Source of the DNA: Fidelibacterota bacterium
GTDB lineage: Bacteria; Fidelibacterota; Marinisomatia; Marinisomatales; TCS56
Direction of reading: 5' to 3'
Length of the DNA stretch: 58,953 nt
NCBI GenBank assembly: GCA_013203115.1
Contig: JABMQW010000206.1
Location: 1-58,953, forward strand
Positions within the stretch are counted from its first letter, which is position 1. Every line of letters starts with the position of its first letter. The notes below the pieces were generated by a model that worked only from the letters and a program-made list of their open reading frames with translations, was not told where the DNA came from and did no database searches. The translations under genes and the position numbers were made by a program. Below, piece after piece: positions 14,401-54,976 of the stretch.

Positions 14401-17400
14401 TGCTTTCCCGTAGTCCGCTATCGACCGCCGATACCTGGAAATAATAGGTCAGGTCATTTATCAGGCCGGTAACGGTGCAGTCGGTGCCCGGTTTGTCAAC
14501 ACGACCGACCGAGTCGCTGGGTTGCGGAACAAAATCAGGAGTCTGACTGACGTAAACGATGTAATGCGATAAGTCTGATTCCGTGTTAGCAATCCAGGAA
14601 AGGGTTACCTGCTGATCATCGACCAAGGCTGCCAAATCTGCCACCGGATCCGGGTGCGGTGAGACCGCATAAATACTTTCGTAAGCACCGAGGTCAGGGT
14701 TACTTTCACTGGGATTCACCCGGGCACTATCAGCCAGATCACGGCCGGTGATGGTGTAATTAGTAGCCGGAATCGTCGGCTCATATACGGTCAGGTCGCC
14801 GGCACCGATCGCCCAAGAGGCGCTGCTGAGACGGTAGTCACCGTTCTCGCTATCTTCAAACTGAGGATCGAAGTCAACAGTATTAGTGCCCGGATAAAAC
14901 AAACCGTCTTCAATCAGACAATTATGAACCTGCACATTGCCCTGATTCTGGGCATAGTTGATCTGCCCATCATAGGTGGGAGTCGGTGTATTATTCCAGA
15001 AGATTGAATTCTGAAAATAGCTCTGGGCATCCTGTACAAATACGGCGCCCCCAAGCAAATCATCGAAAGAATTATTCAGATTACAGGTGTTGTCGGCCAC
15101 GGTAACATGCTGCATGTACAGCTTGATATTTCTGATATGAACGGCACCACCGGCGGAGTTATTCTGCACGGTGGTCTTGTTGTCGGCAAACAGGGAGTTG
15201 GTTATTTTCACCCAGCCACTGCTTGGATTCCAGTCGTGGTATAGAGAAATAGCGCCACCACGGTTGGGAGCAATATTGTCAACGAATGTACAACGTTCAA
15301 CCGTAATTGGTGAAGCTTGTCCGCCGATCGCGCCCCCATATCCATCGCTGGTATGAGTCGTGTAGTTGCTGTCGAACACACAGGCGCTGAAGGTGGGTTG
15401 AGCCTGGTCCGATTCAATGTATACGGCACCACCCTTACCGTTAACATGGTTCCGGTAAAAAGTGCAGGACTCGAAAGCTGGTGCTCCGGAGCCCCAAACG
15501 TACACCGCGCCACCATGCTGTCCACTGTTGACCAAATAATTGTCCTCAAAACGGCAGTTGACAAACTTAGGACTGGCACCGGTCGTAACGGCGCCACCGT
15601 TGTTACCATCGGAGCTCTTACAGTTTTGGATTGTGAAACCAATCACTTGGGTATTAGTGTCATTGTTGCCGTTGAAAGAGATAAAACGGCGGAAACCACT
15701 ACCATCGATAGTGGTGGAATCAGGACCTTCCAAACTCATCAGAACGAATTGTTCAGCCGGTGCATCCAGTTCAGTATCATTATTTGTAATATAATCACCC
15801 GGCAGAACCATAATGGTATCACCGGCACTGAAATTGGCGTTGCCATCCCAGCCATATTTTATGTACTGAAGGGGCTGCTCAGGTGATCCGTCACCTCCGA
15901 TGGCAGCATCCACATCCACATACCAGATCGGCTCATTATACCCGGGGGTGGCTGCTGCAACCGGCGATGCTATTCCCGTGTAACCATCCGAATTATGGGC
16001 GGCCACCCGGAAATAATATGTGGTATCATTGTCAAGTCCTGTCACCAGATGGGTGTATTTGCCACCGGAAACAGCGCTGGCCAGTATTTGCGCAATCGAA
16101 TCACCGGCTGTAGCACTGAAAGTCAGACTATCGCCCTGGTAAACGATGAAGTAATCCAGGTTGGGATTATTGTCCGGCGGTAGTTCATCCCAGATCAACT
16201 GAACAGAATAGGAAGCCGCATCGGCCATGAGGCTCGGTACCTGCTGGGGATAAGGTGAAGTTGCCAATGAGTCTTCGTAGGCACCCAGGTCCGGATCGGA
16301 GCCGCCAGGAAATGGACGGACTCCGCCCAAGATATCAACAGTGGGAGCAGAATTACCATCGAATGCAGCCACACCGGCACCAATGGCCGGACTGTAATCA
16401 CTCAGGGTAAAGTCCAGATTGGCAGGATCCTCAAATTGGGGATCCAAGCTCAGGCTTTGATTATTACCATTGAACCAGTCAAACAGTTCACCGTTTTCAA
16501 CCAGGTTGGCCCTGGCCTCGATATTGGCGTCATAGTGTTCTGTGAAATTTTCTTCATTGAAAACACTACCATAATTGCCCCAGAGGATCGTATTGAACAT
16601 TACCAGTTGTTGCGGTATCCCACTCGTCGAATTGAGGTAAATGCCGCCACCGCGCGATTCATAATTACTGAAGGTGCTGTCATAGGCAATCGTGGTGTTG
16701 ATTATGCGTAATAATCCCTGGGACTCACTGTGAAAATAAATACCGCCACCTGCGGCCCAATTATTAGAAGAGAACGATTGGGCTGTATTATTGGCTATCA
16801 GACAGTTGATCAGGTCGGTACGAGCTTCCAGCGCCAGAGTGCCTCCATAGGCAGCCTGGCTGGATAGCGCCTCATTATCCCGGAAAATACAACGATTGAA
16901 AATGACCTGGGCGCTGGACACATCACTGTTCTGTTGAGCAAACACAGCACCACCGAAAACATTAAGGTGGAAGTCTTCAGAACCAACGGAATTACCAATA
17001 AATTTACAACCATAAAATTGGGCACCGCCTTGCCCGTTGATATGCACGGCGCCACCCACTTCAGCATGGTTATTGTAAAATACTACATCCCGGAAGATGG
17101 GAAATGAATTCTGGATCGTGACTGCGCCGCCACTAATTTCTTCACCATTCTGTAAAGTAAACCCAATTATCTTTTGCGTATAGCTGGAAGAATAGCCGAA
17201 GTGGAAATGGCGATGATTGCCATCGGATAGGACAATGGTGGAATCGGAGCCTTTTTCCGAGCGTACGACCAGGTTTTTGGGACCCAGGTCCAGTTCAAAA
17301 TTACCCACTCCCTGGTAGGTTCCTGGCAGAACCATGACTGTATCATTGCTGGAGGCTGCTGCATCGATTGCATCCTGGATTTTGATAAACGGATATTCCG

Positions 17401-20400
17401 GGCTGCCTTCAAAAGGTCCACTCCCGTCGAGGCTGTCGGCATCCACATACCAGATTGGTCCGGTATATTCCGGCGAAACCATCTGGCTAACAGCCATGGA
17501 ACTCTCGTGAACGGGATCATCGTCATCCACAGCGGTAACACCAAACCAGTAGTAAAGTTTGTTATTCAAATTGCGGATTGTATCATTGGTATTCAACCGT
17601 CCGGCAATAGTGTCAACCGACACCCAGTTGGTTGAATCCTCGCTCTGGTAAACATAATATTTCAAAACATCAAGCGAGTCAGATGCATTCCACGACAACT
17701 CAACGACCCGGTGTAGCGGATTGGTGACAACATTGGTGGGCGGGGATGGGTAGGGCGAGATCAGCAAAGCGTTCTCATAGGCGCCCAGATCCGGGCCATA
17801 AATCCCGCTGGTGGGCCGGGCGTTGCCATCGATATCGGTGGCAGGTGCCTGGATCGGGTTGCCATTCGCATCCTCGGCTATAAAATCTCCGGCACCAATT
17901 GCTGGGCTGCGATCATGGAGCGAATAACTGGCAAATTCCGGATCGGTGTTTAAATTACCATTCTCATAATCATCCGGGTCTAAATCATGCAGTATTGAAT
18001 AGGAAATGGCATGGGATACAGATCCATTGTAGAACATGATTTGATCGTTGATTGGTTCGTTACCATAAATAATACTGTTGAAAATGGTCAATTCATTCCC
18101 CTGGTTTCCTTCGATTTTAATTCCTGCCCCACCCGTGCTATTACCAAGATGCTGATTGTTGGCTATTGTGGAATTGATAATGATTGTCCGGCCCTGGTAC
18201 ACACCAATTCCGGCACCATTAGAAGGTCCAAGACTGACATTGGTGGTATTATCGGCAATTACTGAATTAATTACCGTAAGTAGATTACCAATATCAAAAT
18301 CCAAATATACACCCGCTGTACCGCAGGCTTCCCAACTATTAGCGCTAGTACTATTATATCGAACAATACTACGATCCAGGATCAACTTGCTGTTATTAGT
18401 AATATAAAAGGCACCACCATGAACGTAATCCGAAGCTGAGTTGTTGGTATTGTTCCGCAATTTGCAATCTACGAAGTATGCAATAGAATTGTTTATTAGC
18501 ACCACTGCGGCTGTACGATCGCCTGTACAAGAATCAATATAGCAATTAATAAATTTGGCTCGTGAGTTATTGAACTGAATCGCCGATCCCTGATTATTAC
18601 TACTACCACCAAAGGCAATTCGAAATCCGATTATCTGGGTGGTTGTATCCGTACCGTCGATGAAATCAAATAACCTTTTACTATTCTCACCGTCGATTAG
18701 TGTGGAATCCGGGCCACCACGGGCTTTCAGCACCAGATTTTTTACATTAAATCCGCCTCCACCGTCACTCACCGCAAAACGTAAATATTGATCATCTCCG
18801 GTATTATAACTACCAGGCAAGACCAGTACCGTATCATTGGCATTGGCCACATCAATAGCATCTTGAATCTGGGTATAGGGCGCCTCTGGGCTACCCTCAT
18901 ATAACGTACCACCATAAACTTCATTCACATACCAGTTCGGTCCCGTCCATTCCGGTACAGCCTGCGCCAAAGCAACACCACTGTACTCATCAGCATTTGA
19001 TTTAACCTGGACGCCTACATAATATGGTGTACCATTTACCAAATCAGTGACAGAATAATTAGTTGCAGAATTTGGCAAAGTTGCTACCGGTTCTATCGTG
19101 CCGGGTGATGTACCATTGTAAACAATGTATTCGGCTACAGTACCACTGCTGGGGGCTACCCAGGTCAAGTCAATCTGTTTATGGCCGGGAGTCGCGGTTA
19201 AACTACCCACTGGTTCAATCGGCGAATAGGCCACACGCACGGCTAATACTTGAGGTTCTGACCATGAGTTCATACCTGGAAATGGGTAATTGCCTCCCCC
19301 TCCCTCTCCAACGACCATCCGATGTGTGCTGACATTACGAATATGAACACCACCACCATTGGCCGTCGGACCATTATCATTACTTGCTTCCAACAACCAA
19401 TTTTTAATGCCATCCCACTGTTGGGGGGGGGCAATGCCAAATCTTTTCCATTCATTATTGGCAAATTCACTTTGATTATAAGCCATTGGACCATGGACTA
19501 TATTATCGGACAAGTCCTGATAAGAATTTAATTGGGTGGCAGTCGTCCAGTCCGAACCAATTCTGAAATTCTGTAACTCACTGATCACCGAGGTTGGTTT
19601 TAATTCCACCGCCATTAACCAGGACTCGGATGGAATTCCCGCATCGGATAAATCACCGGCCAAGTACAGCGCTTGATTCTTAACATCTTCGCTGCCGGTA
19701 TTGAAAATATATTCCGGATCGGTTTTAGACTGAGACGCATTCAGATGGAGCAATTCAACCAATTGCTCATGCATCCGGTTTGGTATTGCCATAATTTCAT
19801 CGGAAGCTTCGCTTTCGCGATTGTCAGTATTCAAGGCAGTTACGACAAAATAGTAAGTAGTATCATTACCCAGTCCCGTAATGGTAGTAAAAGTATCCGG
19901 TGGTGACTGCGCCAGCAGCGTGTCAATGCGATTGCCAATTGTTGTTTGGACCGGTGACGATTCCGAACTGTAGACATAGTAAGCGGCCAAGTCGGTGGGG
20001 TCGTTGGCAGCCCAGCGCAGTATAACTTGGGCACTGTCGGCCACGGCCGTCAGATCGGCGGGTGCATCCGGTGCTTCTTTCCGAGAAGCGTAAGCCAAAA
20101 ACCCGTCGTCGGGCAAGTTGTCCTGCCCGGTTTGATAATAATAGTAGATTGCATCAGGGTCCTCGATGGCATCCAAATCGATTTTGAATTCAACCCATCG
20201 CTCTCCGCCACCATAGACAAAGCTCAGATCATCGCTCCAGAGCGTATTCCAGTTGGAACCATTCCATTTCCGGTACGAAACATCTTCATTATAGAAATAC
20301 AGACTATAGTCTGCGCCAATTCCACGGTTTGGGAAACCAGTGGCAGAATTAGTATCCACATCAAAGTAGATATAGCGGTCTTCCCAGCGGATGCCGGTAG

Positions 20401-21550
20401 TAGCAGCATAATATCCGTAAAGATACAGGTCATCAGTGTAAATCTTGATTGAATCCAGGTCACCGAAAGGCGCATCGCCGACAGGATCACGCCAGGCTAC
20501 ATTAATATTCTGCCAGTCAGTATTGAAGCCATCCAGCGAAATATTGATCTGGGACGGTGTGACTGCTTGATTTTCGGAATAATCACTGAAACTGCCATCG
20601 GTATACTTGACCCGGATTCTATAATAATAGGTGGTGTCGTTTTCCAATCCGGTATCCAGGTAGTAGGAGTCTGAGGAGGTCCCTCCCATAATGCTGTCAA
20701 CAACAGTTGTGGGGTTGGCTGAAGTAGCGCGGTAAATATAATACCCGGCCAGATTCCCGGCACTGGAAGCCTGCCAGTTTAAGGATGCTTTCAGATCGCC
20801 GGTGGCAGCGTATAAATCTTTCGGCGCGTCAGAATAATTGATTTGAATTGCGAATTCAGGTTGTAAATATGATCCGTTATTGGTAATGGTGTGCCCGATC
20901 GTTCCATTACTGTTTTGCCATCCAACATGCAAGTTAGAAAAATCGGCGGATGACAATGAATTATATTGGAAAACAATTGTACCATCTTCATATAAAATTA
21001 TTTGAAATGTATTAGGATCATAACCACTGTAAAACGGAACTTCCCAGAATTCAATAATATGCCTGCTGTTGTCTGCATCGTAATAGGAATAGGCCTTATC
21101 CATATCGGCAGAGGGAAAGCCCCCATCCTTAAAATACAGATCGTCCCAGAAAACGGCCAACATGTTTCCGGGGGCACTGCTGGTTGGAAGCGACACGGCA
21201 TTATTATATGAATCACTAAGATTAGAAAAAGCAATAAATCCATTTGTGGAAATCCCGAATGAATTATAGGTGTTTCCATAATAGGGGAAGTCAAATCCGA
21301 TTGGAATCGCATTTTTAACTGTATCATCACCGGATAATGCCAATGGACCACCAAAACCAATGATCTCGACCCAATTATAGGTCGGTCCTCCGGCATCGTT
21401 ACTGCTAATCCATTCATACCCGTAGCTATCGCCATTGGCCATAGCAAATGTGGTTAACCCAATCACGGATAAGAGCGCCGCAATTAATACAGTACGGTAT
21501 GGTGAAATTCGATTGTAATTATTTCGACAATTAGCTGATTTGGTCTTCAT
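2486..21550 (-). CDS. Giant (6,354 aa) secreted mosaic surface protein: NIDO-like N-domain, FN3 repeats, 7-8 right-handed beta-helix modules, Big/Ig-like array, T9SS C-terminal sorting domain
   Basis: Single uninterrupted ORF with an ATG start. Signal anchor TVLIAALLSVIGLTTFAMA. FN3 signatures recur (L.W......L.GY.VY...DTTYYF.V.A). Beta-helix modules are rich in GGA(I/V)(Y/F) and N..F..N rungs. Big-like repeats read (D.FDN.V.D...V.W.I...TD.NG.A.V.L.T). The C-terminal motif is NFPNPFNPKTTI...SGIYFYV. My residue count was checked against nucleotide anchors at aa 707, 1362, 4819 and 5076. Confidence 0.92.
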   Translation of the reverse strand: MKTKSANCRNNYNRISPYRTVLIAALLSVIGLTTFAMANGDSYGYEWISSNDAGGPTYNWVEIIGFGGPLALSGDDTVKNAIPIGFDFPYYGNTYNSFGISTNGFIAFSNLSDSYNNAVSLPTSSAPGNMLAVFWDDLYFKDGGFPSADMDKAYSYYDADNSRHIIEFWEVPFYSGYDPNTFQIILYEDGTIVFQYNSLSSADFSNLHVGWQNSNGTIGHTITNNGSYLQPEFAIQINYSDAPKDLYAATGDLKASLNWQASSAGNLAGYYIYRATSANPTTVVDSIMGGTSSDSYYLDTGLENDTTYYYRIRVKYTDGSFSDYSENQAVTPSQINISLDGFNTDWQNINVAWRDPVGDAPFGDLDSIKIYTDDLYLYGYYAATTGIRWEDRYIYFDVDTNSATGFPNRGIGADYSLYFYNEDVSYRKWNGSNWNTLWSDDLSFVYGGGERWVEFKIDLDAIEDPDAIYYYYQTGQDNLPDDGFLAYASRKEAPDAPADLTAVADSAQVILRWAANDPTDLAAYYVYSSESSPVQTTIGNRIDTLLAQSPPDTFTTITGLGNDTTYYFVVTALNTDNRESEASDEIMAIPNRMHEQLVELLHLNASQSKTDPEYIFNTGSEDVKNQALYLAGDLSDAGIPSESWLMAVELKPTSVISELQNFRIGSDWTTATQLNSYQDLSDNIVHGPMAYNQSEFANNEWKRFGIAPPQQWDGIKNWLLEASNDNGPTANGGGVHIRNVSTHRMVVGEGGGGNYPFPGMNSWSEPQVLAVRVAYSPIEPVGSLTATPGHKQIDLTWVAPSSGTVAEYIVYNGTSPGTIEPVATLPNSATNYSVTDLVNGTPYYVGVQVKSNADEYSGVALAQAVPEWTGPNWYVNEVYGGTLYEGSPEAPYTQIQDAIDVANANDTVLVLPGSYNTGDDQYLRFAVSDGGGGFNVKNLVLKARGGPDSTLIDGENSKRLFDFIDGTDTTTQIIGFRIAFGGSSNNQGSAIQFNNSRAKFINCYIDSCTGDRTAAVVLINNSIAYFVDCKLRNNTNNSASDYVHGGAFYITNNSKLILDRSIVRYNSTSANSWEACGTAGVYLDFDIGNLLTVINSVIADNTTNVSLGPSNGAGIGVYQGRTIIINSTIANNQHLGNSTGGAGIKIEGNQGNELTIFNSIIYGNEPINDQIMFYNGSVSHAISYSILHDLDPDDYENGNLNTDPEFASYSLHDRSPAIGAGDFIAEDANGNPIQAPATDIDGNARPTSGIYGPDLGAYENALLISPYPSPPTNVVTNPLHRVVELSWNASDSLDVLKYYVYQSEDSTNWVSVDTIAGRLNTNDTIRNLNNKLYYWFGVTAVDDDDPVHESSMAVSQMVSPEYTGPIWYVDADSLDGSGPFEGSPEYPFIKIQDAIDAAASSNDTVMVLPGTYQGVGNFELDLGPKNLVVRSEKGSDSTIVLSDGNHRHFHFGYSSSYTQKIIGFTLQNGEEISGGAVTIQNSFPIFRDVVFYNNHAEVGGAVHINGQGGAQFYGCKFIGNSVGSEDFHLNVFGGAVFAQQNSDVSSAQVIFNRCIFRDNEALSSQAAYGGTLALEARTDLINCLIANNTAQSFSSNNWAAGGGIYFHSESQGLLRIINTTIAYDSTFSNYESRGGGIYLNSTSGIPQQLVMFNTILWGNYGSVFNEENFTEHYDANIEARANLVENGELFDWFNGNNQSLSLDPQFEDPANLDFTLSDYSPAIGAGVAAFDGNSAPTVDILGGVRPFPGGSDPDLGAYEDSLATSPYPQQVPSLMADAASYSVQLIWDELPPDNNPNLDYFIVYQGDSLTFSATAGDSIAQILASAVSGGKYTHLVTGLDNDTTYYFRVAAHNSDGYTGIASPVAAATPGYNEPIWYVDVDAAIGGDGSPEQPLQYIKYGWDGNANFSAGDTIMVLPGDYITNNDTELDAPAEQFVLMSLEGPDSTTIDGSGFRRFISFNGNNDTNTQVIGFTIQNCKSSDGNNGGAVTTGASPKFVNCRFEDNYLVNSGQHGGAVYVWGSGAPAFESCTFYRNHVNGKGGAVYIESDQAQPTFSACVFDSNYTTHTSDGYGGAIGGQASPITVERCTFVDNIAPNRGGAISLYHDWNPSSGWVKITNSLFADNKTTVQNNSAGGAVHIRNIKLYMQHVTVADNTCNLNNSFDDLLGGAVFVQDAQSYFQNSIFWNNTPTPTYDGQINYAQNQGNVQVHNCLIEDGLFYPGTNTVDFDPQFEDSENGDYRLSSASWAIGAGDLTVYEPTIPATNYTITGRDLADSARVNPSESNPDLGAYESIYAVSPHPDPVADLAALVDDQQVTLSWIANTESDLSHYIVYVSQTPDFVPQPSDSVGRVDKPGTDCTVTGLINDLTYYFQVSAVDSGLRESNFGQELNATPNSFHLQVVELLHNNAISNPFNEQGYPFNNAYKKVKHQSLYLAEELTAAGIPDNAWISGVDLKPSFISGDIDNLRLGYTFTAGTELNSFENTSIFYGPEMFVVEDITADEWMRFYTEPIQINSNNWVLEYSHDNDYYGFNGGAYLRQVDGMRGRRGYSDVGTWPFSGMSNEVPEDQVLAVRVVYSAIEPVDNLQAVPGHHQVEITWDAPVSGTVTRYLVYSGQNADSLALSDTATTNTITITGLNNREEYYIAIQVESDAGEFSTMIIIEASPMYVGPVWYVDPVSGTFNGEGSPEEMAQSIKPMIMASSDGDTILLKPGTYSGFDNRNLDFQDGWDQGGVRDLVLIGEKGADSTIIDISNSGSFLDVSSGESIASKLIGITIQNANSGAIIISNNSQLVVKNCVFRDNSSSSGGAIILSNASDLRVRSVLFEGNSASCPGGAISIGNSTADIKNSIFYDNYAGCYGGAISIDEDQSVLQMVHCLILDNSAESGPGGIMYQSMNPQVNVYNSIFWGNTQNPGFSNDINEASIVDHCILQEGSAVINLGTNWTFDPMITDVENGNFTLSEYSPAIGLGLEDYNDFWQGAFTLVPASDYFSSDRPNPVGSLPDLGPIEHERAEPRRWVYSVAPAPAGNDSNDGISAPFLTIQRAIDETDMLDTVEVAAGTYVGDDNKNLDFGGMDIVLRSTDGPDTTIIDCENSGRGFEFSSGEPPSAKVIGFTVRDGNADEGGAIAIYPDTLGNPTSPTFWNLKLVDCGVTGEGGAIYADNSNSLFANLVIANNSADSAGVAYLDGGSVTFLNNTIVGNRSNDSNGIVYVAGEHNVLNSILWDNTVNGNEIWFDDGTRSLIDVRYTNVMGGYDGEGNLNLRPGFVNVADTNFHLAEWSPMIGAADTALFTSLDYDLNPRTISGTTWPDMGAYEHAGMEPDLTNYTNMDWYVSTTGDDGSGTGSDGSPFWSIQYTTYYALYSDTIRVEAGIYNQNATVKDKPIAFKATDGPATTVVDGGGNSRVFDISGSGPGGFYLEGFTIQNGVADFGAGINLQNTGGTIRNAVISGNSAIAGNGGGLRSFVDDSTQTYTLSIDNTIITANSSTTYGGGLSTGQTTVNISGCEISNNTSEHIGGFFFGGDRASFQMSDCIISGNQANGSIGGGGFSSSIGTVTRTLIVGNEANLNPSGGGTEAGGIEIWAGASVVFDNCTFSDNSAEYGGGLTVGSSAVATVTNSILWGNSPEQLALHLTDIEVGTIDISYSLAQGGEDSVYIAPDAGSPILTWGAGNVDRDPRFVGVDDYHIMANSAAVNAGDPTDTDTDYTVRDMGVYPYLNNYSGPDWYSDAVFGSDSDGTGSSGDPFASIQAPINFASPADSIFVEEGTYYENVKFRGNYHKLVGVQGSANTIVDGGGNGPVFDLSGTGVDNPTVLEGFTITNGYAYRGGGIYSNGSSLVLRNLIVSENTATAFGGGAALRNVDPVFIPTVLVENCDFINNHSDYMLGGLYVKDCSTTIDSIKVLGNTADSSYAGLYITGNVGGGFTVANSIFHGNQTNGFAAAGGFDSFAFGTVSYSIISDNSANLEMSGSHSGGFSVWEGSSVDFINCTIANNTADHGAGLTTGNGGAATLRNCVVFGNTPDQLAGDTDQGQGGTITVNYSDVEGGEAGPNLSPESLFYWGIGNIDADPLFVDAANSDFELQLLSPCVDTGDPADTFDPDGSVRDMGALPLFRNIVGGNTGGNNVVITGDTTTIILTDLIVDPNDSLIVEPGSNVYVGDGVKINILGTLDAPGSPAEPISFSTLHEGEEFGGVVLRGGSSPGREIPEYSYLSISDVANDSIPLTITESAILNHMTIAGNDRSQPSLSVGETVTLNYSILESSVNATTLTENHSFVNDTTHFVDLAGGYLSLLDTSIAIDTGIAEAGTNLDPDSTYSDAGAYYHDQSAYPTVTATVIYPAFGDTIIANPDISTVNFNGLSIRSQLLNEYGRAKTNAIVDWDFNTINGSLLNNNTVSTDLDGFVLNTFYTSTTAGDLNQFTIISDGVQDTSGFFRVIPGAPDSLALPAEFSLDTAMIQLDELTLAVDVYDQFDNLVSDGDTVNWTIVPVVGDGDGFTIVTTPTFTDANGQATVDLTTDPNTTLVVGDAIRLEAESNDSTVQTMLITIVPDDIYNLSMPESLTADTIDLSADVASIVITATMIDTFENPLEGVDISWSITTDSSPDSALSSSITPTDAAGVATVELTTGTVAGYEYWVEAWINEESLMAALNNQANTDAIRVAGNVTTTNKKGSVSTRQITLPVNIGQPVFPDNWDREAIYDLEDTTNVIRIVPGVPDTVIFEIATDTVMTRQDSIEFVVDIFDQYDNLVADSSLVTWELGIIFGGGEGGLSFSDSTSITVGGSANVVLITTDTLWLMAGQHYEVIATCEGIESRSEPIHIVNDDPYNLIVDDAYDRTPEADANTVELEVTIFDRFDYPLEDVPVYWSIIQGTGGGLENGDLLDTTLTYEAIATNTLTTATLSGSEYRVRIWVDNVGGYTLSRSTGGESVFKAQPAASTGKLAFSAMPETPLSVLSAGSRTDFQLDDTTDVITVLPGVPAGVVFDLTNDTTLTQLEALPVAVTITDQYGNLVADSTSVDWVIEGVVITGFVLDTVTSVTTNGIAINVLRTAPTAALGTTVTVKAQSGTAFISSNDVVVVADDPYNLTVDDAYDRLPVADNNTVPMTVTLIDTFENVLDAVPVYWSIIEGTGGSFDNTDLLDTTLTGVGGIATNTLTTVTLSGSEYRVRIWVENVGGYTFSRSIGGESVFSVLPAASTGKLAYSTMPETPLSVLSAGSRTDFYLDYTTDIITVLPGVPAGVVFDLTNDTVMTQLEALPLVVTVTDQYGNMVIDETIIDWTIEGVATTGFNLDQNTTLATNGIGINVLRTDPAAVLGTTVTVKAQSGTAFISSNNVVVVADDPYNLTVDDAYDRTPVADANSVPLSVTIIDTFENVLDAVPVYWSIIEGTGGNFDNSDLLDTTLTGVGGIATNTLTTANTSGSVYRVRIWVENVGGYTFSRSIGGESVFSVLPAASTGKLAFSAMPETPLSVLSTGPRTDFYLDYTTDVITVLPGAPVTITLDNPDKIRYLFQGDQDSIIIHVFDAFDNSVADTSVVNWNPVYTGGEYSIDMQENVTTAGRAKLNLTADQNAPWLAQIDFAILVESVFDANYAEDSITYIIDDKIPPGAVIGLTITPAEWDSVNSFDLSWSNPPEHSGVKGAHYVIDTNTYYYQEEPGIIAVDDIALFENGISTIGVWLEDNAANKDIENIVSMVAKWDNVAPDAFTLDDPVPSATPGWLKISDPVFSWNHSSDATAGLRHYRFELTGTVTYTIDPEQDTLKLDDPLAEGSSYTLSVFAVDSAYNETESNTVTFGVDLTLPKVTEHNEANDKPIDTEFTLDISFKDDVSGVNTIICKYRVSGETDWNTSTKTSTVAVGVVDDKTFTVQSQFVTHTGVEYKFELTDNAGNIYYYPDDKEYYSVQVRENDGFSSTTMWSQGIPNGSSVAAYQLISFPGVPTNTSPHEILVTASGFGAYDNTKWRFFTYETGEWIEFANIPDIEKSKAYFLIVMDGGKNINTGVVRTVKTEVPESVSLTNGDWAFIGNPFNFTIPLENVYDENGLSVAGDENFQSYIGGAWTGVTALEPWQGYIFKSATAQTLFINPNIENGGTAKILDNAVNSLEDDEWLIDITARNGYARDLHNRVGVLHRAQDTYDPMDNFEPPLLPGGISLRIDNHDWPANGDIYTTDIKSINPEGSFWDMEVVASDKKYSVALNFAGLEDLPEEYDIFLIDKSIGTAQNLRGRPDYYYAIGSAKSTRNLRLVAGTRDFVNANNAGVALYPESYSLSQNFPNPFNPKTTILVSIEDDAFVDLVIYNLLGEVVTTLAREEYLPAGYYNYIWAGKNDHGRRVASGIYFYVSRIKSPSGKMLLNSTKKMILVK
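2489..2767 (-). other. T9SS type-A C-terminal sorting domain (aa 6262-6354 of the giant protein)
   Basis: QNFPNPFNPKTTILVSIEDDAFVDLVIYNLLGEVVTTLAREEYLPAGYYNYIWAGKNDHGRRVASGIYFYVSRIKSPSG. This matches the canonical Por-secretion-tail / FlgD-Ig-like pattern from my memory of the family. Confidence 0.75.
5081..7915 (-). repeat. In-frame tandem coding repeats of about 774 nt (257-258 aa; two Ig-like domains per unit), 3.6 units
   Basis: Every unit starts with DD(P/I)YNL. Unit 0 (diverged) is aa 4546-4818 (7097-7915). Unit 1 is aa 4819-5075 (6326-7096). Unit 2 is aa 5076-5333 (5552-6325). Unit 3 (partial) is aa 5334-about 5490 (5081-5551). Units 2 and 3 share runs of more than 100 nt of near identity. 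The track shows identical shadow ORFs at 5104, 5878 and 6652 (774-nt spacing). Confidence 0.9.
8576..18949 (-). other. Array of right-handed parallel beta-helix modules (7 complete plus 1 degenerate), interspersed with FN3 in its first half
   Basis: Module spans in nt: 17765-18949, 16265-17467, 14675-15940, 12521-13552, 11606-12502, 10406-11569, 9221-10387, and degenerate 8576-9217. In the best-conserved copies each opens with ..WYV(D)..GSPE.P...IQ.AID.A...DT(V/I)...PG.Y. Those copies close with DP.F.....D(F/Y).L...SPAIGAG....PDLGAYE; the later modules are degenerate at both ends. Confidence 0.7.
13805..14365 (-). repeat. Unassigned ~188-aa module, copy 2 (aa 2396-2582)
   Basis: FHLQVVELLHNN...KHQSLYLAEELTAAGIPDNAWISGVDLKPSFISGDIDNLRLG...EDQVLAVRVVYSAIEPV aligns along its whole length with aa 593-780. 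Confidence 0.7.
19211..19774 (-). repeat. Unassigned ~188-aa module, copy 1 (aa 593-780)
   Basis: MHEQLVELLHLN...KNQALYLAGDLSDAGIPSESWLMAVELKPTSVISELQNFRIG...EPQVLAVRVAYSPIEPV. It is a paralogue of aa 2396-2582 and, like copy 2, sits between two FN3 domains. Confidence 0.7.
19423..19431 (-). repeat. G9 (coding-strand C9) homopolymer inside the giant ORF
   Basis: Plus strand reads ttGGGGGGGGGcaatg. Coding strand reads GCC CCC CCC CAA = A707-P-P-Q710. It is the longest G/C homopolymer I noticed in the window. Confidence 0.9.
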
Positions 21551-46146: not shown

Positions 46147-46312
46147 TTTCTTTTCCCTTTAACCACGAATTGCTCGAATTTAACGAATACAAAACATATT
46201 AGAACGGATTCTTCCTGATTGGTGATTATTATTATTACTCTGCGTTCTTGTGTCTACGGTTTGTGGTAAACCAACCATTGACCAATGACTATTGGCCAAT
46301 GACAATTCGCCA

Positions 46313-49780
<3,468 letters not shown>

Positions 49781-50020
49781 CGGTTGTCAAAATTGGTCTT
49801 AATACAAGATAATTCACGGATAAAAATACTGAATGAAAAATGGAAGATGGAAGACGGATTATAGTTTATTTCAAATCTCAGCAGAGATCCCGATAGTTAA
49901 GTTGAATTAAGTGAAATCCCGTACTTGAGTCAGAGCGTATCGGGAGAAGCTGGGAAATGGTAGTAAAGTAATTAGTTACGAGTAGGCAGTGAAAAACGTG
50001 AGAATGCCTGCGGCTAGTAA

Positions 50021-50085
50021 GCCTGCCTGCGCTAAAGCTTTGGCAGGTAAACCCACCTGCGCTATCGCCTTCGGTGGGTAAAAAA
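50021..50085. repeat. Tandem pair of small hairpins with covarying stems and a shared loop/tail motif
   Basis: Hairpin 1: CCTGCC-TGCGCTAAAGCTTT-GGCAGG-TAAA (50022-50051). Hairpin 2: CCCACC-TGCGCTATCGCCTTC-GGTGGG-TAAAAAA (50052-50085). The stems differ but stay complementary, while the 5' loop TGCGCTA and the TAAA tail are conserved. Confidence 0.6.
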
Positions 50086-50353
50086 TGTTGTGTGTTGAAT
50101 TTTAAGTTATGCGTTATGAGTTAATTCAACATTCCAACCTTCGTCCTGCTGCTATGCACCGGGAGCTGCGGTCGGCAGGCAAAACTTTGAATTCAAAACT
50201 AATGACCAGAGACCGGCATCGCCAAGAACTGTCATACTGAGGAACCGTAGTGACGAAGTATCTCTGCTGTTAGTTGGTGGAACAAGCATCTATCAGAGAT
50301 TCTTCGCTCCGACTGTCGTCGTCACTCAGAAAGACAAACGTGTTCTGAATTGC

Positions 50354-50440
50354 GAATAATGAACAAGGATTAACGAAGGAAGAAGTGTGATTTGGGGTGT
50401 ACTTCTAAATTTAACGTTCGTTAATCGGTGTTGGATATTC
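50354..50440. repeat. 87-nt structured repeat, copy A (59-nt imperfect palindrome core at 50368-50426)
   Basis: The first 34 nt and last 24 nt are identical to copy B; the central 29 nt differ at 12 positions. Core geometry: gattaacgaa-gga-agaagt-(14-nt loop)-acttct-(10 nt)-ttcgttaatc. It lies 43 nt downstream of the Fic stop. Confidence 0.85.
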
Positions 50441-50483
50441 AGCTCTTTCTGCGTATTCCGCGTTTCAGTGGATGAAAGATGAT

Positions 50484-51080
50484 TTATGGCCGAGCAAAAT
50501 CCAGCAATGGAGCGACGTCACCCTTATCGGCAGCATGGAAGGCGGCGATGTAGGATCGGCGGGCTTCACCGGGTTTGACTAATCCGGCCTGCCCCCAGGT
50601 GAAAACCGGTTGATGATAAATATGACTGGCGATAACATCGGCCAGCAGGCGTGAATGGCGGCCATTGCCATTAGCAAAGGGATGAATGCTGACCAGCCGG
50701 TGTTTGAAACGAATTGCCAGCTCATCTGGTGAAAAAGTGTCATTTTCATACCAGTATTTAGCATCGTCGATCAGTTTCCGTACTTCAGTTGGAATTTGAT
50801 ATTTATCGACACCGATATTTTTGTTAGTTGTACGGTAATTACCAGCCCAACGCCAGACCTGGTCATACATGCGCCGATGTAATTCCAGAATAAATGCTTC
50901 GGATAATATCCGTCCCGTTTTCAGTTTGCGACCCAAGCTCCATTCCACAGCTAACTCCACGTTCAACTGTTCAAATTCATCCAGCTCACCGCGATTGGAA
51001 ACCGTGGGGATCAGCAGACCCTCCCGCTCTTCATCGGTCAGTGGGGTCTGGCCATTGGCAAAATCAATAATCAATCCCAC
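50484..51080 (-). CDS. Fic-family protein ('mobile mystery protein B' type)
   Basis: Fic motif HPFANGNGRHSR (HxFx[DE]GNGRxxR). N-terminal part: GQTPLTDEEREGLLIPTVSNRGELDEFEQLNV...LHRRMYDQVWRWAGNYR. It overlaps the upstream HTH gene by 10 nt. Confidence 0.9.
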   Translation of the reverse strand: MGLIIDFANGQTPLTDEEREGLLIPTVSNRGELDEFEQLNVELAVEWSLGRKLKTGRILSEAFILELHRRMYDQVWRWAGNYRTTNKNIGVDKYQIPTEVRKLIDDAKYWYENDTFSPDELAIRFKHRLVSIHPFANGNGRHSRLLADVIASHIYHQPVFTWGQAGLVKPGEARRSYIAAFHAADKGDVAPLLDFARP

Positions 51081-51529
51081 AGGTACCTCGGCATTGTTGT
51101 TACAATCTCGCTGGTTTTTTCGGCAATCGCCTGCTCGATTCGTTCCGGCCTGTTTTCCTGGTCTTCCAAGGCCATCGATGCGGAAGTCCGCAGTACGATT
51201 TCTCGCGCCAAATCGCGAGCCCGGTTTTCGATCATTGCTGCCAACGATCCCTCCACCGGAATGAAACCGTACACGAATTTCATGTTCAAAGCAGCGCCGA
51301 CCTGTCTCAGCACCTTTAGAGAAATCGTACCAGCTTTTTCCCGCTCTTCGATTTGTTTGACAGCCGGAGCAGTAATTCCCATCCGCCCTGCCAGTTGCCT
51401 AAGGGACATTGTCAAAGCAGTGCGCAGTGCTTTAACCCAACCGCTGGTTGGTATATCAAGCCTTTCAAGTTCTTCTAATTGCGAAAGCTTCCTGTCGAGT
51501 TGATTTAACATTAGTTTTTGATTATTCAT
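51071..51529 (-). CDS. XRE-type HTH DNA-binding protein ('mobile mystery protein A' type; putative antitoxin/regulator)
   Basis: HTH segment SLRQLAGRMGITAPAVKQIEEREKAGTISLKVLRQVGAALN. 152 aa. It is the upstream partner of the Fic gene, the arrangement described for the mobile mystery A/B pair. Confidence 0.85.
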   Translation of the reverse strand: MNNQKLMLNQLDRKLSQLEELERLDIPTSGWVKALRTALTMSLRQLAGRMGITAPAVKQIEEREKAGTISLKVLRQVGAALNMKFVYGFIPVEGSLAAMIENRARDLAREIVLRTSASMALEDQENRPERIEQAIAEKTSEIVTTMPRYLWD

Positions 51530-51561
51530 AAAGTTTCAGCTTAATTATATTGACATAAATA

Positions 51562-51609
51562 TATAGCTATACCTTTAAATATACAATGCATTAATTAAGC
51601 TATAGCTTA
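51562..51609. promoter_or_regulatory. Two palindromes sharing a TAGCTA core, 32-80 nt upstream of the HTH start (candidate operators)
   Basis: TATAGCTATA (51562-51571, perfect 10-bp palindrome) and TAAGCTATAGCTTA (51596-51609, perfect 14-bp palindrome), in a very AT-rich stretch directly upstream of the ATG at 51529. Confidence 0.4.
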
Positions 51610-51852
51610 TGTTTTGTGATTAGAATTCAGGGAACCAACGCTCAACCACAACTCATAGCTACTAACTTCTGCCCTCAGTGGCTGTAGTTCCGAAGGAGGA
51701 ACGACTGAGGCCAGTCAGTCGTAATGCAAGCGCAGGCTGGATACTCAAGCTGAAGTTTTGCACCCGACCTATGCTTGAGATTCCAGCCTACGTTTCACTT
51801 CGGCAGGTAAACTTCTCCCGACCAGCCGGGATCAGAATGACAAGCCCGTTTT

Positions 51853-51939
51853 GAATAATGAACAAGGATTAACGAAGGAAGAAGTGGGCCGGGTGGCGTA
51901 TTTCTAAGTTCATCATTCGTTAATCGGTGTTGGATATTC
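51853..51939. repeat. 87-nt structured repeat, copy B (59-nt imperfect palindrome core at 51867-51925)
   Basis: Direct repeat of 50354-50440 (75/87 identical by manual alignment). Same stem/loop geometry, with a G-U-compatible change in the inner stem (agaagt/atttct). Confidence 0.85.
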
Positions 51940-52171
51940 CCGCGCCCACCAATGATAAATGGCTATTGACACCCGAAACTTTGAAAAACATCGGGATTCT
52001 CTGCCTGTCCATCGTGGCTTAAATGTAGATGGATATCTTGGTGGTTAAAAAATGTAGAGTCGACTGGTCATACAATGGAATAAAGTTGTCTAAAAAATTG
52101 TCCAATTAATAGTAAATGACTGAATTAAGCCGACTCCTGCGTAATATTAATCCAATTTAACATAAGCCCAA

Positions 52172-54976
52172 ATGAAGAATTTCCTGATCGCCTGCCTCGT
52201 AATACTCAGCTTACAGCCTCTGTACGGACAAGCCCGCTACCGGATCACCGGCCGTGTTTTAAACCAGTCCAATCTGGCGCCCTTGGTCGGGGCGCATGTA
52301 CAATTGACCCAACCCACCGGCGGAATTGTTAAAAATACTACCACTTCCCCGGCCAGCAGATTCGATTTTAAGGAACTTGCGCCTGGCAACTACACGGTTA
52401 AAATCACCCATGTGGGCTTTCAGGAATATGAGCAGAAGGTCACGTTGGTCAGCGACCATCTTAACCTAAAAACGATCCGCCTAACCTATGCCCCGATTCC
52501 CCTGAGCCAGGTCAATGTTGAAGAAGTCCGGCCCCTGGCAATCCAGAAAGGGGACACGACCCAGTACAACGCCGAAGTATTTAAGACCAATCCCGATGCC
52601 TCGGCTGAGGACCTGGTCCGGAAAATGCCGGGCATTACGGTTAATGATGGACAGGTCCAGGCCCAGGGCGAAAATGTTCAGAAAGTCCTGGTGGATAATC
52701 GCCCCTTTTTCGGCGACGATCCCAATATCGCCTTGCGCAATCTGCCGGCGGAAATTATCGACAAAATCCAGGTCTTCGATCAGCAGAGCGAAAAAGCCCA
52801 GATGACTGGTTTTGATGACGGCAATACGGTGAAGACGATGAATATCATTACCAAGGCCGGAATGAACACCGGGCAGTTCGGTAAACTGTATGCCGGTTAT
52901 GGAGAAAACGGGAAATACCGCCTGGGCGGTAATATGAATATCTTCAGCGGCCAGCGGCGTATCTCGATTATTGGCCAGTCCAATAATGTCAATATCCAGA
53001 ATTTTGCTGCGGAAGACCTGCTGGGAGTGGTTAGCTCCACCGGAAGGCGGCGCGGAGGCCACTTCGGCGGAATGGGTGGCGGTCGCGGACACCGTCCAGG
53101 CAGTTACCGTGGATCGAGGGGCGGTAGTATCAGTGATTTCCTGGTGCCCCAGCAGGGTGGCATCTCCACGACCCATGCTATTGGCCTGAACTACCAGGAT
53201 AAATGGTGGCAGAAACTGGATATAACCGGCAGCTACTTCTTTAACTGGTCCGATAATGATAATGAATGGGAGCTTCTACGCAATTATTTTTCCAGTACCA
53301 CCCTGGCAGAGGCCTATCAGGAAAATGAAACCGTCACCAGCCGGAATCTCAATCATCGCCTGAACCTGCGCCTGGATTACAATCTCACCGAGAATGATCG
53401 CCTGACCTTCCGGCCACGCCTGACTATTCAACAGAATGATGGCTCGTCCGACCTGTCCGCAGAAAGTTTTTACGGGAGCGATCTAACTTCAGCCCTGCTT
53501 AATATTTTTAACTCAGACCTGGCCACGGTCAATTTTTCCAGCCGTCAGTATTACCGCCGCAAATTCAATAAGGAGGGACGCACCCTGTCCCTGGGATCGA
53601 ATATCTCTGCCAATTATTACACCGGTGACAGCGACCAGGAAGCTGTGAGCACGGTATTTTCAGGTGACAGCCTGCTAAGCAGCCAGCAATCAACTTTAAA
53701 CCAGGATGGCCTGGAACTCAGTGGCAATCTGTCGTTTACCGAACCCTTCGGTGCCAACGGATCAATAACCGCCTCCTATGAAATCTCCAACCAGGCCAAT
53801 TCCTCCGATAAAACGACCTACCTGCAGGCCGGGACCGAGGGTATCTTTACCCTGCTTGACAGCAGCCAGTCCAACCTGTTTACCAATGATTATCGGTCCC
53901 AGGAAACAAGTATCGGTTATCGCTACCGTAAGGATGGTACGATGTTGATCCTGCGTGGCAATTACCAATCTGCCACCCTGCGGAACGATCAGGAATTTCC
54001 CTTCAGCGCCCGGACCGAAAAAACCTACAAAAGTTTTTTACCACTATGGATAGTACGTTTTAAGATTGACGAATTTCGGCGCCTGAGTCTGGTTTACCGC
54101 CAGTCACTGCAGTTGCCATCGATCAATCAGCTCCAGGCTGTGGTCGACAACAGCAATCCCCTGCAGTTATCAGTCGGCAACCCTGACTTGAACCAGCAAT
54201 TTAACCACAGGTTATTTTTGCGCTATTCCGCCACCCGGCACGACCGGGAATCCGTTTTCTTTGCTATGCTGGTCTTCAATTATGCCACCGATTATCTCGG
54301 CAGCCGGACAATATTTGCTTCCGGAGACAGTACTGTTTATGAAGGAATACCCCTGACCAGGGGCATTCAACTGGTGATCCCGGAAAATATGGATGGCTAC
54401 CGGAACCTGCGTTCATTCATGACTTATGGCCATCCCCTGCCCTGGCTCAAATCGAATCTCAATTTGAACCTGTCGGCCAATTATACCCGTACGCCGGGCT
54501 ATCTAGGGGATCAGGAAAATTATTCTGACAGCCGGAATTACGGATTGCAGATCATCCTGACCAGCAATGTTAGTGAAAGACTTGATTTTACCATTTCCAG
54601 CAATTCCAACTGGTTCTGGATTGATAATTCGCTCGGTAATGGTGATTCACGATATTTCACTCAGAGTTCATCCTGCAAGCTGGACTGGATCCTCGGACCT
54701 GGAATCACCCTGCATTCCAGTCTGGATTACCGCTCATATACCGGTTTCTCCTTTGAAGGTAAAAATACCATAACCCTGTTAAATCTGGGCCTCGGGAAAA
54801 AACTATTCGCCGGACAAAAAGGTGAACTCCAGTTTGCTGTCTTTGATGTCCTGGGAGAGAACAGTAACCTGTCCCAATCCAGCACAGGAACCTATATTGA
54901 AGAAAACCAGTCCCTGGCACTGACCCGCTATTACCTGTTAAGCTTTACCTACCGGATAAAAAATTTCCGGATTTAA
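52172..54976 (+). CDS. Outer-membrane beta-barrel protein of the TonB-dependent-receptor-like family (CarboxypepD_reg-like N-domain, plug-like region, large barrel)
   Basis: Signal peptide LIACLVILSLQPLYGQ. YRITGRVLN...VGAHVQL...NYTVKITHVGFQEYEQKV. Plug-like segment QKGDTTQYNAEVFKTNPDASAEDLVRKMPGITVNDGQVQAQGENVQKVLVDNRPFFGDDP. Long alternating-strand C-terminal region ending ..FTYRIKNFRI. Confidence 0.8.
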   Translation: MKNFLIACLVILSLQPLYGQARYRITGRVLNQSNLAPLVGAHVQLTQPTGGIVKNTTTSPASRFDFKELAPGNYTVKITHVGFQEYEQKVTLVSDHLNLKTIRLTYAPIPLSQVNVEEVRPLAIQKGDTTQYNAEVFKTNPDASAEDLVRKMPGITVNDGQVQAQGENVQKVLVDNRPFFGDDPNIALRNLPAEIIDKIQVFDQQSEKAQMTGFDDGNTVKTMNIITKAGMNTGQFGKLYAGYGENGKYRLGGNMNIFSGQRRISIIGQSNNVNIQNFAAEDLLGVVSSTGRRRGGHFGGMGGGRGHRPGSYRGSRGGSISDFLVPQQGGISTTHAIGLNYQDKWWQKLDITGSYFFNWSDNDNEWELLRNYFSSTTLAEAYQENETVTSRNLNHRLNLRLDYNLTENDRLTFRPRLTIQQNDGSSDLSAESFYGSDLTSALLNIFNSDLATVNFSSRQYYRRKFNKEGRTLSLGSNISANYYTGDSDQEAVSTVFSGDSLLSSQQSTLNQDGLELSGNLSFTEPFGANGSITASYEISNQANSSDKTTYLQAGTEGIFTLLDSSQSNLFTNDYRSQETSIGYRYRKDGTMLILRGNYQSATLRNDQEFPFSARTEKTYKSFLPLWIVRFKIDEFRRLSLVYRQSLQLPSINQLQAVVDNSNPLQLSVGNPDLNQQFNHRLFLRYSATRHDRESVFFAMLVFNYATDYLGSRTIFASGDSTVYEGIPLTRGIQLVIPENMDGYRNLRSFMTYGHPLPWLKSNLNLNLSANYTRTPGYLGDQENYSDSRNYGLQIILTSNVSERLDFTISSNSNWFWIDNSLGNGDSRYFTQSSSCKLDWILGPGITLHSSLDYRSYTGFSFEGKNTITLLNLGLGKKLFAGQKGELQFAVFDVLGENSNLSQSSTGTYIEENQSLALTRYYLLSFTYRIKNFRI

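Follow-up and report, generated by a model that had tools for sequence, protein, structure and literature searches.

The question raised by this locus is how a helix-turn-helix (HTH) gene and a Fic-domain gene came to lie between two copies of a long, structured repeat in a 58,953-nt stretch of Fidelibacterota DNA (contig JABMQW010000206.1, analyzed over its whole length and called the window below). The two repeats, designated H1 and H2 and referred to collectively as H, had been likened in a first-pass annotation to the attC recombination sites of integrons, with the gene pair as a candidate gene cassette. A repetitive extragenic palindromic (REP) element or a MITE (miniature inverted-repeat transposable element), or a different recombination site, was named there as the fallback, and this fallback lies closer to the evidence than the attC cassette. 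With a slight balance of probability in its favor, the reading preferred here is that H copies are 3′-end elements of genomes of the Fibrobacteres–Chlorobi–Bacteroidetes (FCB) group, similar to REPs and bacterial interspersed mosaic elements (BIMEs), and that recombination between copies shuffles defense and toxin–antitoxin (TA) modules in this lineage. H resembles known kinds of element, namely REP-like repeats and attC-like joints. The greater interest lies beyond the cassette question, in the heptad repeat family itself and in its position at the joints of a defense island.

A repeat search found H1 and H2 as the only two copies of an 87-nt direct repeat in the window, with 75 of 87 positions (86%) identical and the copies 1,499 nt apart. 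The first 34 nt and the last 24 nt are the same in both copies, and all 12 mismatches fall inside the central 29 nt, as had been described. Each arm occurs twice in the window at up to three mismatches, against 0 occurrences expected from 100 shuffles. From the outside inwards, the fold consists of a 5-bp helix, a 3 × 3 loop, a 4-bp helix, a 2 × 2 loop, and the 10-bp stem GATTAACGAA/TTCGTTAATC, which encloses an asymmetric loop of 3 versus 10 nt, a 6-bp stem, and a 14-nt loop; the geometry from the 10-bp stem inwards, earlier proposed as common to both copies, was reproduced by folding. The DNA folding z-scores of H1 and H2 were −4.8 and −6.3 on the plus strand and −3.7 and −4.0 on the minus strand, and RNA folding of the minus strand, which is the gene sense, gave −6.4 and −6.0. 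A nhmmer profile built from 12 Marinimicrobia copies scored H1 at 78 bits on the minus strand.

The arms of H are composed of heptads of the form GAxxxxx. The repeat reaches 21 nt further to the left (50326–50346 versus 51832–51852, 16 of 21 identical), and the 7-nt indel in this extension is exactly one heptad, GAATTGC at 50347–50353. A wider similarity of the flanks was given up, as the 160-nt flanks were not significant in global alignment and only the 21-nt extension with its heptad indel holds. The same arrangement is present in independent assemblies from JGI (L113; the loci compared are given L numbers), Logan (L103), and ENA (L116), and is therefore not an assembly artifact. The Logan contig (1,525 nt, with a 26-nt end overlap inside an arm) was considered as a possible circle, which was rejected, since an assembly-graph break at the repeat gives the same overlap. 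No Rfam family matched the window or 16 H-bearing loci at the gathering threshold, and the region 49780–52180 gave chance-level matches only, including an Ocean-V-like one at E = 5.6. No tRNA gene that could serve as an integration target was found in the window.

Both proteins encoded between the repeats score above the curated NCBIfam cutoffs for the "mobile mystery" families, and their genes are adjacent, which bears out the name first given to the pair. The HTH protein matches TIGR02612 (mob_myst_A) with 147.9 bits against a cutoff of 122.6, and the Fic protein matches TIGR02613 (mob_myst_B) with 253.1 bits against 124.4. The HTH protein is presumed to be the antitoxin or regulator of Fic, and the pair is a candidate for a self-contained Fic TA-like or defense module, as judged from sequence. 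In the Fic motif HPFANGNGRHSR, Asn stands in place of the Asp/Glu of the canonical HxFx(D/E)GNGRxxR, and the stretch S-M-A-L-E-D of the HTH protein is loosely like the inhibitory motif SxxxE(G/N) when compared by eye only. A universal link between such pairs and H was rejected, as no heptad arms lie close to the Fic pairs of L120, L122, and L125 (62–69% identity). A phage origin was also discarded (eight viral-contig pattern matches were not of the heptad type, and a phage collection gave no match), as was a plasmid origin (plasmid matches were confined to the Fic coding region). For the mobile mystery pair, the locus supplies a definite genomic setting.

The spacer upstream of dnaE and the array of a relative

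DnaE homologs place the window in Marinimicrobia (Neomarinimicrobiota/Fidelibacterota). Its relatives show four different states of the locus that in the window lies between the outer-membrane (OM) barrel gene and dnaE. First, in L108 and L109 (DnaE 95% identical), the OM-barrel gene stands next to dnaE with a 671-nt spacer, and neither the HTH/Fic pair nor H is present. Second, L110 (DnaE 89% identical) has no Fic pair and exactly one H, both flanks of which are homologous to those of H2 (GAATGACAAGyCCGTTTT before H and CCyGyrCCCACyAATGA after it). This is the empty site with a single remaining repeat for which the first-pass annotation had proposed to examine syntenic loci. Third, L135 and L136 (DnaE 80% identical) carry an H upstream of dnaE, 96 nt past the ubiA stop codon, and another H 133 nt past the dnaE stop codon. 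Finally, L111 (DnaE 81% identical) carries a DUF559 endonuclease gene and other accessory genes upstream of dnaE. These states show the spacer upstream of dnaE to be a long-standing variable spot with a resident H, and the 1.5-kb HTH/Fic unit to be a presence/absence module. In L110 (5650–8000), the 934-aa OM-barrel gene is wholly missing between the FGGY kinase gene and dnaE, so that a conserved neighbor is itself variable.

The closest homologs of the Fic protein led to ENA contig NODE_1054, which comprises L116 and L118 and whose OM-barrel flank is 94.7% nt-identical to that of the window. The order in this contig is an OM protein gene (pointing leftwards), H_a, a secretin gene, H_b with a second palindrome (designated U), HTH–Fic, H_c with U, HigB–M78, a second HTH–Fic, H_d with U, and genes for a C5-methylase, a UvrD/PD-(D/E)XK helicase, an HNH protein, and Vsr. 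All genes of the array are co-directional. A copy of H lies at the end of four of the five modules of L116, 41–43 nt past the stop codon, as with Fic in the window. The cargo falls into defense or candidate defense families: PADLOC assigned the Fic proteins to PDC-S04 and SoFic, the M78 protein to PD-Lambda-2_B (E = 1.5e-38), and the methylase to MTase_II, and it found the helicase to be GajB-like. The two HTH/Fic modules of L116 are 89% identical over 1,037 nt and form a tandem duplication between H copies, and a third module variant, with H on both sides, is present in L134 (Fic 75% identical).

The secretin module offers the closest view of a boundary. Collinearity around it is such that window positions 53000–51859 correspond to L116 1524–2665, and window positions 51950–49994 to L116 4092–6062. 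H_a has the sequence of H2 up to ...CCTTGTTCA and continues beyond that point as secretin-module DNA, while H_b is complete, has an H1-type loop, and continues into the flank that is found after H2 in the window. This make-up indicates that the secretin module was gained or lost in register within H, with a crossover somewhere in the roughly 27 nt of the 3′ arm that extend from the loop to ...GTTCA. In addition, the three loop types of H, the two left flanks, and the right flanks (U types) occur in differing combinations among the copies. The in-register junction and this reassortment show that H copies recombine.

Within Marinimicrobia, H is strongly strand-specific, with scores of 74–83 bits for one strand against about 20 for the opposite strand, and it is always co-oriented with dnaE and the island genes. 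Few copies lie outside the island in the Marinimicrobia DNA covered here, and the 5′ arm GAATATCCAAYACCGATTAACGAATG is nearly invariant in 13 copies. Part of the gene-cassette proposal stands on these results, as the presence/absence of the module, the array in L116, and the in-register junction all speak for it; defining attC features are lacking, however, and no integrase or transposase is found in the window.

Heptad-periodic palindromes in FCB genomes

A pattern scan for a 10-bp stem with a gap of 25–55 nt, carried out on one genome per species, yielded 102 loci, against a chance expectation estimated here at about 17. Nearly all of them are from the FCB group (Bacteroidota, Ignavibacteria, Calditrichota, Marinimicrobia, and Fibrobacteres), and some genomes have several. 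At more than half of the 102 loci, both arms are runs of heptads that start with GA (e.g., GAATATC GAACAAG GATTAAC GAATGAT GAAGT...), a feature that lies outside the search pattern. The family can be written as (GAW-N4)n...(N4-WTC)n, the 5′ arm being an array of GAW-N4 heptads and the 3′ arm an array of N4-WTC heptads. In 735 kb, a heptad-arm detector picked out 169 stretches with five or more GA heptads in a row versus 1 in shuffled sequence, and the window has only those of H1 and H2. Among 55 elements, the G–C pairs of the GAW/WTC triplet form at frequencies of 0.85 and 0.69 and the A–T pairs at 0.98 and 0.91; covariation at the W position is 0.89 versus 0.62 expected, and the four intervening positions pair at chance level. 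The conserved feature is the recurrence of GAW at 7-nt intervals along both arms, and not a complete stem, which points to a protein-binding array or an unusual 3′-end signal. No Rfam family covers these elements and no description of them was found in the searchable literature, so that the family, which spans all the groups listed above, is apparently undescribed. Terminators and repeat elements of the FCB superphylum are poorly characterized.

The elements show a marked preference in their placement: 21 lie between convergent genes, 34 between tandem genes, 4 between divergent genes, and 3 inside open reading frames (ORFs). Facing the elements are 86 gene 3′ ends, with a median spacing of 82 nt, and 40 of these ends lie within 60 nt. 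The neighbors are ordinary housekeeping genes, and no transposase or integrase is present among the 76 ORFs next to the elements. Tandem clusters that repeat about every 100 nt are found in L025, L024, L030, L078, and L085. In L025, from a Bacteroidales metagenome-assembled genome, positions 5272–6121 hold at least seven tandem heptad hairpins with this period, in a stretch that includes an assembly gap. Copies scattered like REPs, which had been named at first as an outcome that would speak against a cassette, were thus found in part: the elements stand beside housekeeping genes across FCB, in tandem clusters, and after ubiA and dnaE. Their placement and symmetry suggest that the native H may be a strand-symmetric (bidirectional) 3′-end element or a protein-binding array, possibly acting as a terminator or insulator; a terminator scan found no intrinsic terminator at H.

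With such a placement, H could be purely a 3′-end element (a terminator, insulator, RNA-stability, or protein-binding element) with no role in mobility, the Fic pair being flanked by two copies since every unit of the island ends in one. The strong preference for gene 3′ ends with depletion from divergent spacers, the constant distance of 41–43 nt from the stop codon in four modules, the H copies after ubiA and dnaE in L135, and the strand-specific conservation of the 5′ arm are all consistent with this explanation. However, exchange between copies is evident from the in-register H_a/H_b junction and from the way in which loops and flanks reassort, and H2 in the window follows no co-directional gene. 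Moreover, the stems are AT-rich, periodically mismatched, and lack a T-run, unlike intrinsic terminators, and across FCB there is no orientation bias of H toward neighboring genes beyond the general preference for 3′ ends. An element restricted to 3′-end functions is considered unlikely.

In the preferred reading, that of REP/BIME-like elements whose copies recombine, H1 and H2 would be oriented copies of a Marinimicrobia subfamily of the FCB-wide family of extragenic palindromes, elements whose usual place is just past a stop codon, frequently in tandem clusters or where two genes converge. The spacer between the OM-barrel gene and dnaE is a variable defense/TA island in this lineage, most of the accessory modules carrying their own H followed by the second palindrome U. 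The HTH/Fic pair together with H1 would have been gained next to the resident H, or would be losable, through H-by-H recombination with a crossover in the 3′ arm, and exchange within the conserved arms would add, remove, and duplicate modules. H-by-H recombination may in this manner have created the arrangement in the window. The enzyme involved could be that of general recombination, or slippage could occur between the identical arms of 24–34 nt, or a site-specific recombinase encoded elsewhere could act on them.

Several observations weigh against such a scheme. First, not every boundary in L116 is an H, as the HigB/M78 module is bracketed by two repeats of another type, D (L116 5974–6013 and 7675–7713). 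Second, identical arms of 24–34 nt are short for RecA-dependent exchange, there is one sharp junction only (H_a to secretin), at which the crossover is narrowed to about 27 nt of the 3′ arm and not to a single bond, and the comparisons cannot tell insertion from deletion for any event. Third, the 3′ arm is decayed in 3 of the 13 Marinimicrobia copies, which show no covariation beyond that of shuffles, and in the 55 elements of the wider family the complementarity of the arms is limited to the GAW/WTC triplet, 3 of 7 positions per heptad; because of these three properties, the hairpin itself may not be the functional form. Finally, neither a recombinase nor a binding protein nor a transcript end can at present be assigned to H. 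The empty site, the single-copy site, and the expanded array provide a natural test case for REP-like repeats giving integron-like modularity without an integrase.

Comparison with integrons and other known systems

The attC reference used was the 59-base element of aadA1, verified as 100% identical to R100. Its folded form has an R box that is paired, a spacer of about 5 nt that is not, an L box in inverted orientation to R, and bulges of single bases, and its boxes are ordered GTCTAAC-AATTC-GTTCAAGC. Compared to this site, H shows both likeness and difference. In gene orientation, its outer boxes are ATCCAAC, which fits RYYYAAC at 7 of 7 positions, and GTTCATT, which fits GTTRRRY at 5 of 7 (on the plus strand, AATGAAC at 5 of 7 and GTTGGAT at 7 of 7); the box matches quoted in the first-pass annotation were correct as read. 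Of these boxes, only AACA/TGTT pairs, next to the 3 × 3 internal loop. Other features differ. First, the inner box GATTAAC is a direct repeat of ATCCAAC following it after 3 nt, 10 nt apart, where attC has inverted boxes, and the spacers are of 2–3 nt versus about 5 nt. Second, the stem has symmetric 3 × 3 and 2 × 2 loops with a larger asymmetric loop inside, where attC has extrahelical bases formed by single-base bulges. Membership of H in the attC class, as first suggested, failed on the direct inner boxes, the short spacers, and the lack of extrahelical bases. No integrase or other recombinase was found among the scanned ORFs of the 59-kb window, among the called genes of L113 and L116–L119, or in the 14 kb covered of the relative with the array. 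Because the box geometry differs, no recombinase was found, and H also follows ubiA and dnaE, H is not classed as a canonical attC site on its sequence.

In a less strict form, H would be a non-canonical folded site of the attC type whose crossover point, in gene orientation, is G|TT of the 3′ box GTTCATT. The island would resemble a cluster of attC sites lacking an integron integrase (CALIN) and would be served by a tyrosine recombinase encoded elsewhere, and the cassette, about 1.5 kb long, would consist of HTH/Fic with H1. H shares with integron sites an imperfect palindrome in the size range of 57–141 nt (87 nt here), a variable center, a position at the 3′ end of modules at constant distance from the stop codon in a one-directional array, a junction (...CCTTG/TTCA|...) in the 3′-terminal GTT box that fits G|TT cleavage, and one copy left at the empty site in L110. 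The outer box ATCCAAC (R″) is a full match and its AAC/GTT triplets pair, and H is seldom met away from the island in the Marinimicrobia DNA covered. TA and defense cargo as found here is typical of sedentary integrons according to a preprint (bioRxiv 10.1101/2024.07.02.601686).

In contrast, the L boxes of H are direct, its spacers are short, and it has no extrahelical bases, with attC_aadA1 the opposite in all three, and R′ GTTCATT has two consensus mismatches. H also conserves 24–34 nt of its arms, whereas attC conserves just the 7-nt boxes. The H1-type loop follows two unrelated modules (secretin and Fic), which is unexpected if each cassette keeps its own site. Although four of five modules of L116/L118 end in H, with the H_a–secretin junction at ...CCTTGTTCA|, the HigB/M78 module has none, and unlike integron sites H also follows housekeeping genes, ubiA and dnaE among them, and forms tandem clusters across FCB. 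No IntI was found, and IntegronFinder surveys recorded very few integrons in Bacteroidetes/Chlorobi (PMC9024848). An integron-like system is accordingly held to be doubtful. A bolder form would have the H copies act as recombination sites for an integron-like cassette platform not linked to an integrase, peculiar to Marinimicrobia or perhaps wider in FCB, that assembles defense/TA modules upstream of dnaE, with the (GAW-N4)n arrays as a scaffold for a multimeric protein on folded or single-stranded DNA. It would amount to a second, independent invention of the attC principle from a REP-like family and is, if anything, a shade more doubtful.

The REP/BIME elements of Proteobacteria, including REPINs (REP doublets forming hairpins), are closer. 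Like them, the heptad elements are short imperfect palindromes, present in several copies per genome, placed in intergenic positions after stop codons with enrichment past gene 3′ ends, between convergent genes, and often in tandem, and they are like REP/BIME in being hot spots of recombination and rearrangement. Unlike REPs, H is longer (about 50–100 nt), has a 7-nt periodicity with only GAW/WTC complementary, and shares an arm sequence, GAACAAGGATTAACGAA, across phyla. No GTAG/CGTC head is present at the ends of H, and no Y1 transposase of the REP-associated (RAYT) kind is found among the 76 neighboring ORFs or in the window.

Two kinds of selfish-looking neighbor recur near heptad elements, and these are the only ones. 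Genes of PF05635, the "23S rRNA intervening sequence protein" family of four-helix bundles, lie between the 5′ and the 3′ arm in L024 (1467–1954) and L090 (3156–3631) and between two complete H copies in L033 (3873–4653). A 121-aa DUF559 gene, encoding a Vsr-like endonuclease, is found in L037 (1840–2770), flanked by two composites of H and a GC-rich module X 770 nt apart, in L105 (4033–4640), adjoining H, and in L111 (7105–7470), directly upstream of dnaE. The H copies near DUF559 are embedded in X, CCCCTCTTGAGAGGGG...GTGGGAAGGGGTGTG. These associations raise the possibility that H is a MITE, or that its copies pair up as terminal inverted repeats at the two ends of a small transposon or homing element mobilized in trans (by the DUF559 endonuclease, the PF05635 protein, or an unseen transposase), with the Fic pair captured between copies. 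The presence or absence of H alone at the dnaE locus (none in L108, present in L110 and L135) would agree with this. It is nevertheless the least probable of the explanations considered, and a very improbable one: no target-site duplication is visible at the flanks of any copy, neither the 76 neighboring ORFs nor the window yielded a transposase, H1 and H2 stand in direct and not in inverted orientation, the arms are not faithful inverted repeats but only periodically complementary at 3 of 7 positions, and the head of REP/RAYT elements is missing.

Two further systems may be compared. The pdif modules of Acinetobacter are also small accessory modules, often TA, that are bounded by copies of a short site and have no recombinase of their own, presumably depending on a host enzyme in trans. 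pdif sites, however, are 28-bp XerC–spacer–XerD sites in alternating orientation on plasmids, whereas H is an 87-nt hairpin in direct orientation on the chromosome. A dif/Xer-like core in H was dropped as a poor match to dif, a comparison made by eye only. The ORF-bearing intervening sequences of 23S rRNA (Leptospira type), which founded PF05635, are long stems enclosing a small ORF. The PF05635 genes between two H arms in Bacteroidota (L024 and L090) are similar to ORF-bearing intervening sequences, but the elements here are intergenic and not in rRNA, and the genes in the window lie between two complete hairpins and not inside one.

Other features of the window

Features around the HTH/Fic module, with positions in the window
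Feature	Position	Strand	Remarks
D hairpins, tandem units of ~30 nt (CCTGCC...GGCAGGTAAA / CCCACC...GGTGGGTAAA)	50012..50093	.	conserved in relatives, upstream of dnaE
U1, long imperfect palindrome GTCATACTGAG...CTCAGAAAGAC	50231..50335	-	directly after H1 in gene orientation; 97% identical to L116 U_c
Leftward repeat extension and extra heptad GAATTGC	50326..50353	-	the end of palindrome U1 that lies nearest to H
H1, 87-nt heptad hairpin repeat	50354..50440	-	starts 43 nt past the stop codon of Fic
Fic-domain gene, mobile mystery protein B (TIGR02613)	50484..51080	-	motif HPFANGNGRHSR; matches PADLOC candidate defense family PDC-S04 and SoFic
XRE-type HTH gene, mobile mystery protein A (TIGR02612)	51071..51529	-	10-nt overlap with the Fic gene
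AT-rich region upstream of the HTH gene	51530..51620	-	palindromes TATAGCTATA and AAGCTATAGCTT (inverted-repeat search)
U2, second U-type palindrome	51705..51852	-	directly after H2 in gene orientation; RNA z −4.0
H2, second 87-nt copy	51853..51939	-	orthologous to the single L110 copy (both flanks conserved) and to H_a of L116
CCGCGCCCACC, left over from the GC-rich X module found beside H copies at other Marinimicrobia loci	51940..51950	.	from locus comparison

The AT-rich region upstream of the HTH gene may be the promoter/operator of the module itself, although a scan of the minus strand there for the sigma-70 consensus gave no strong match. The U element (GTCWTTCTGA...TCAGAAWGAC) directly follows almost every Marinimicrobia H, and its copies share a head of about 40 nt and have variable bodies. 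The 40-nt head of U2, AAAACGGGCTTGTCATTCTGATCCCGGCT..TCGGGAGAAG, is common to U_b, U_d, and the U of L108. Further sites are found after each H in L116, at L108 7290–7470, and at L135 6556–6700, and no Rfam family matches U. A hammerhead-like reading of CUGA...GAAG in U, made by eye, was dropped for want of Rfam support, and the proposal that the U of L108 is a recombinant of U1 and U2 was withdrawn, as it matches the U_d type of L116. The D repeats around the HigB/M78 (PD-Lambda-2-like) module in L116 represent a second repeat type at a module boundary.

Three other features lie further away. A run of heptamers of another type (TTGTCAT TGGCCAA TAGTCAT TGGTCAA) is present right after the dnaE stop codon, at about 46255–46312 in the window, and is conserved in L110 (11430–11475). 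In L135/L136, a lone Cas6b-like gene (PF17955/PF17262, from precomputed annotation) lies at 108–1136 between rho and an aminotransferase gene. Finally, a single ORF of 6,354 aa occupies positions 2486–21550 of the window on the minus strand, with an fn3 domain in the scanned N-terminal 1,000 aa and with FecR-like and CsgG/LpoB-like genes as its neighbors.

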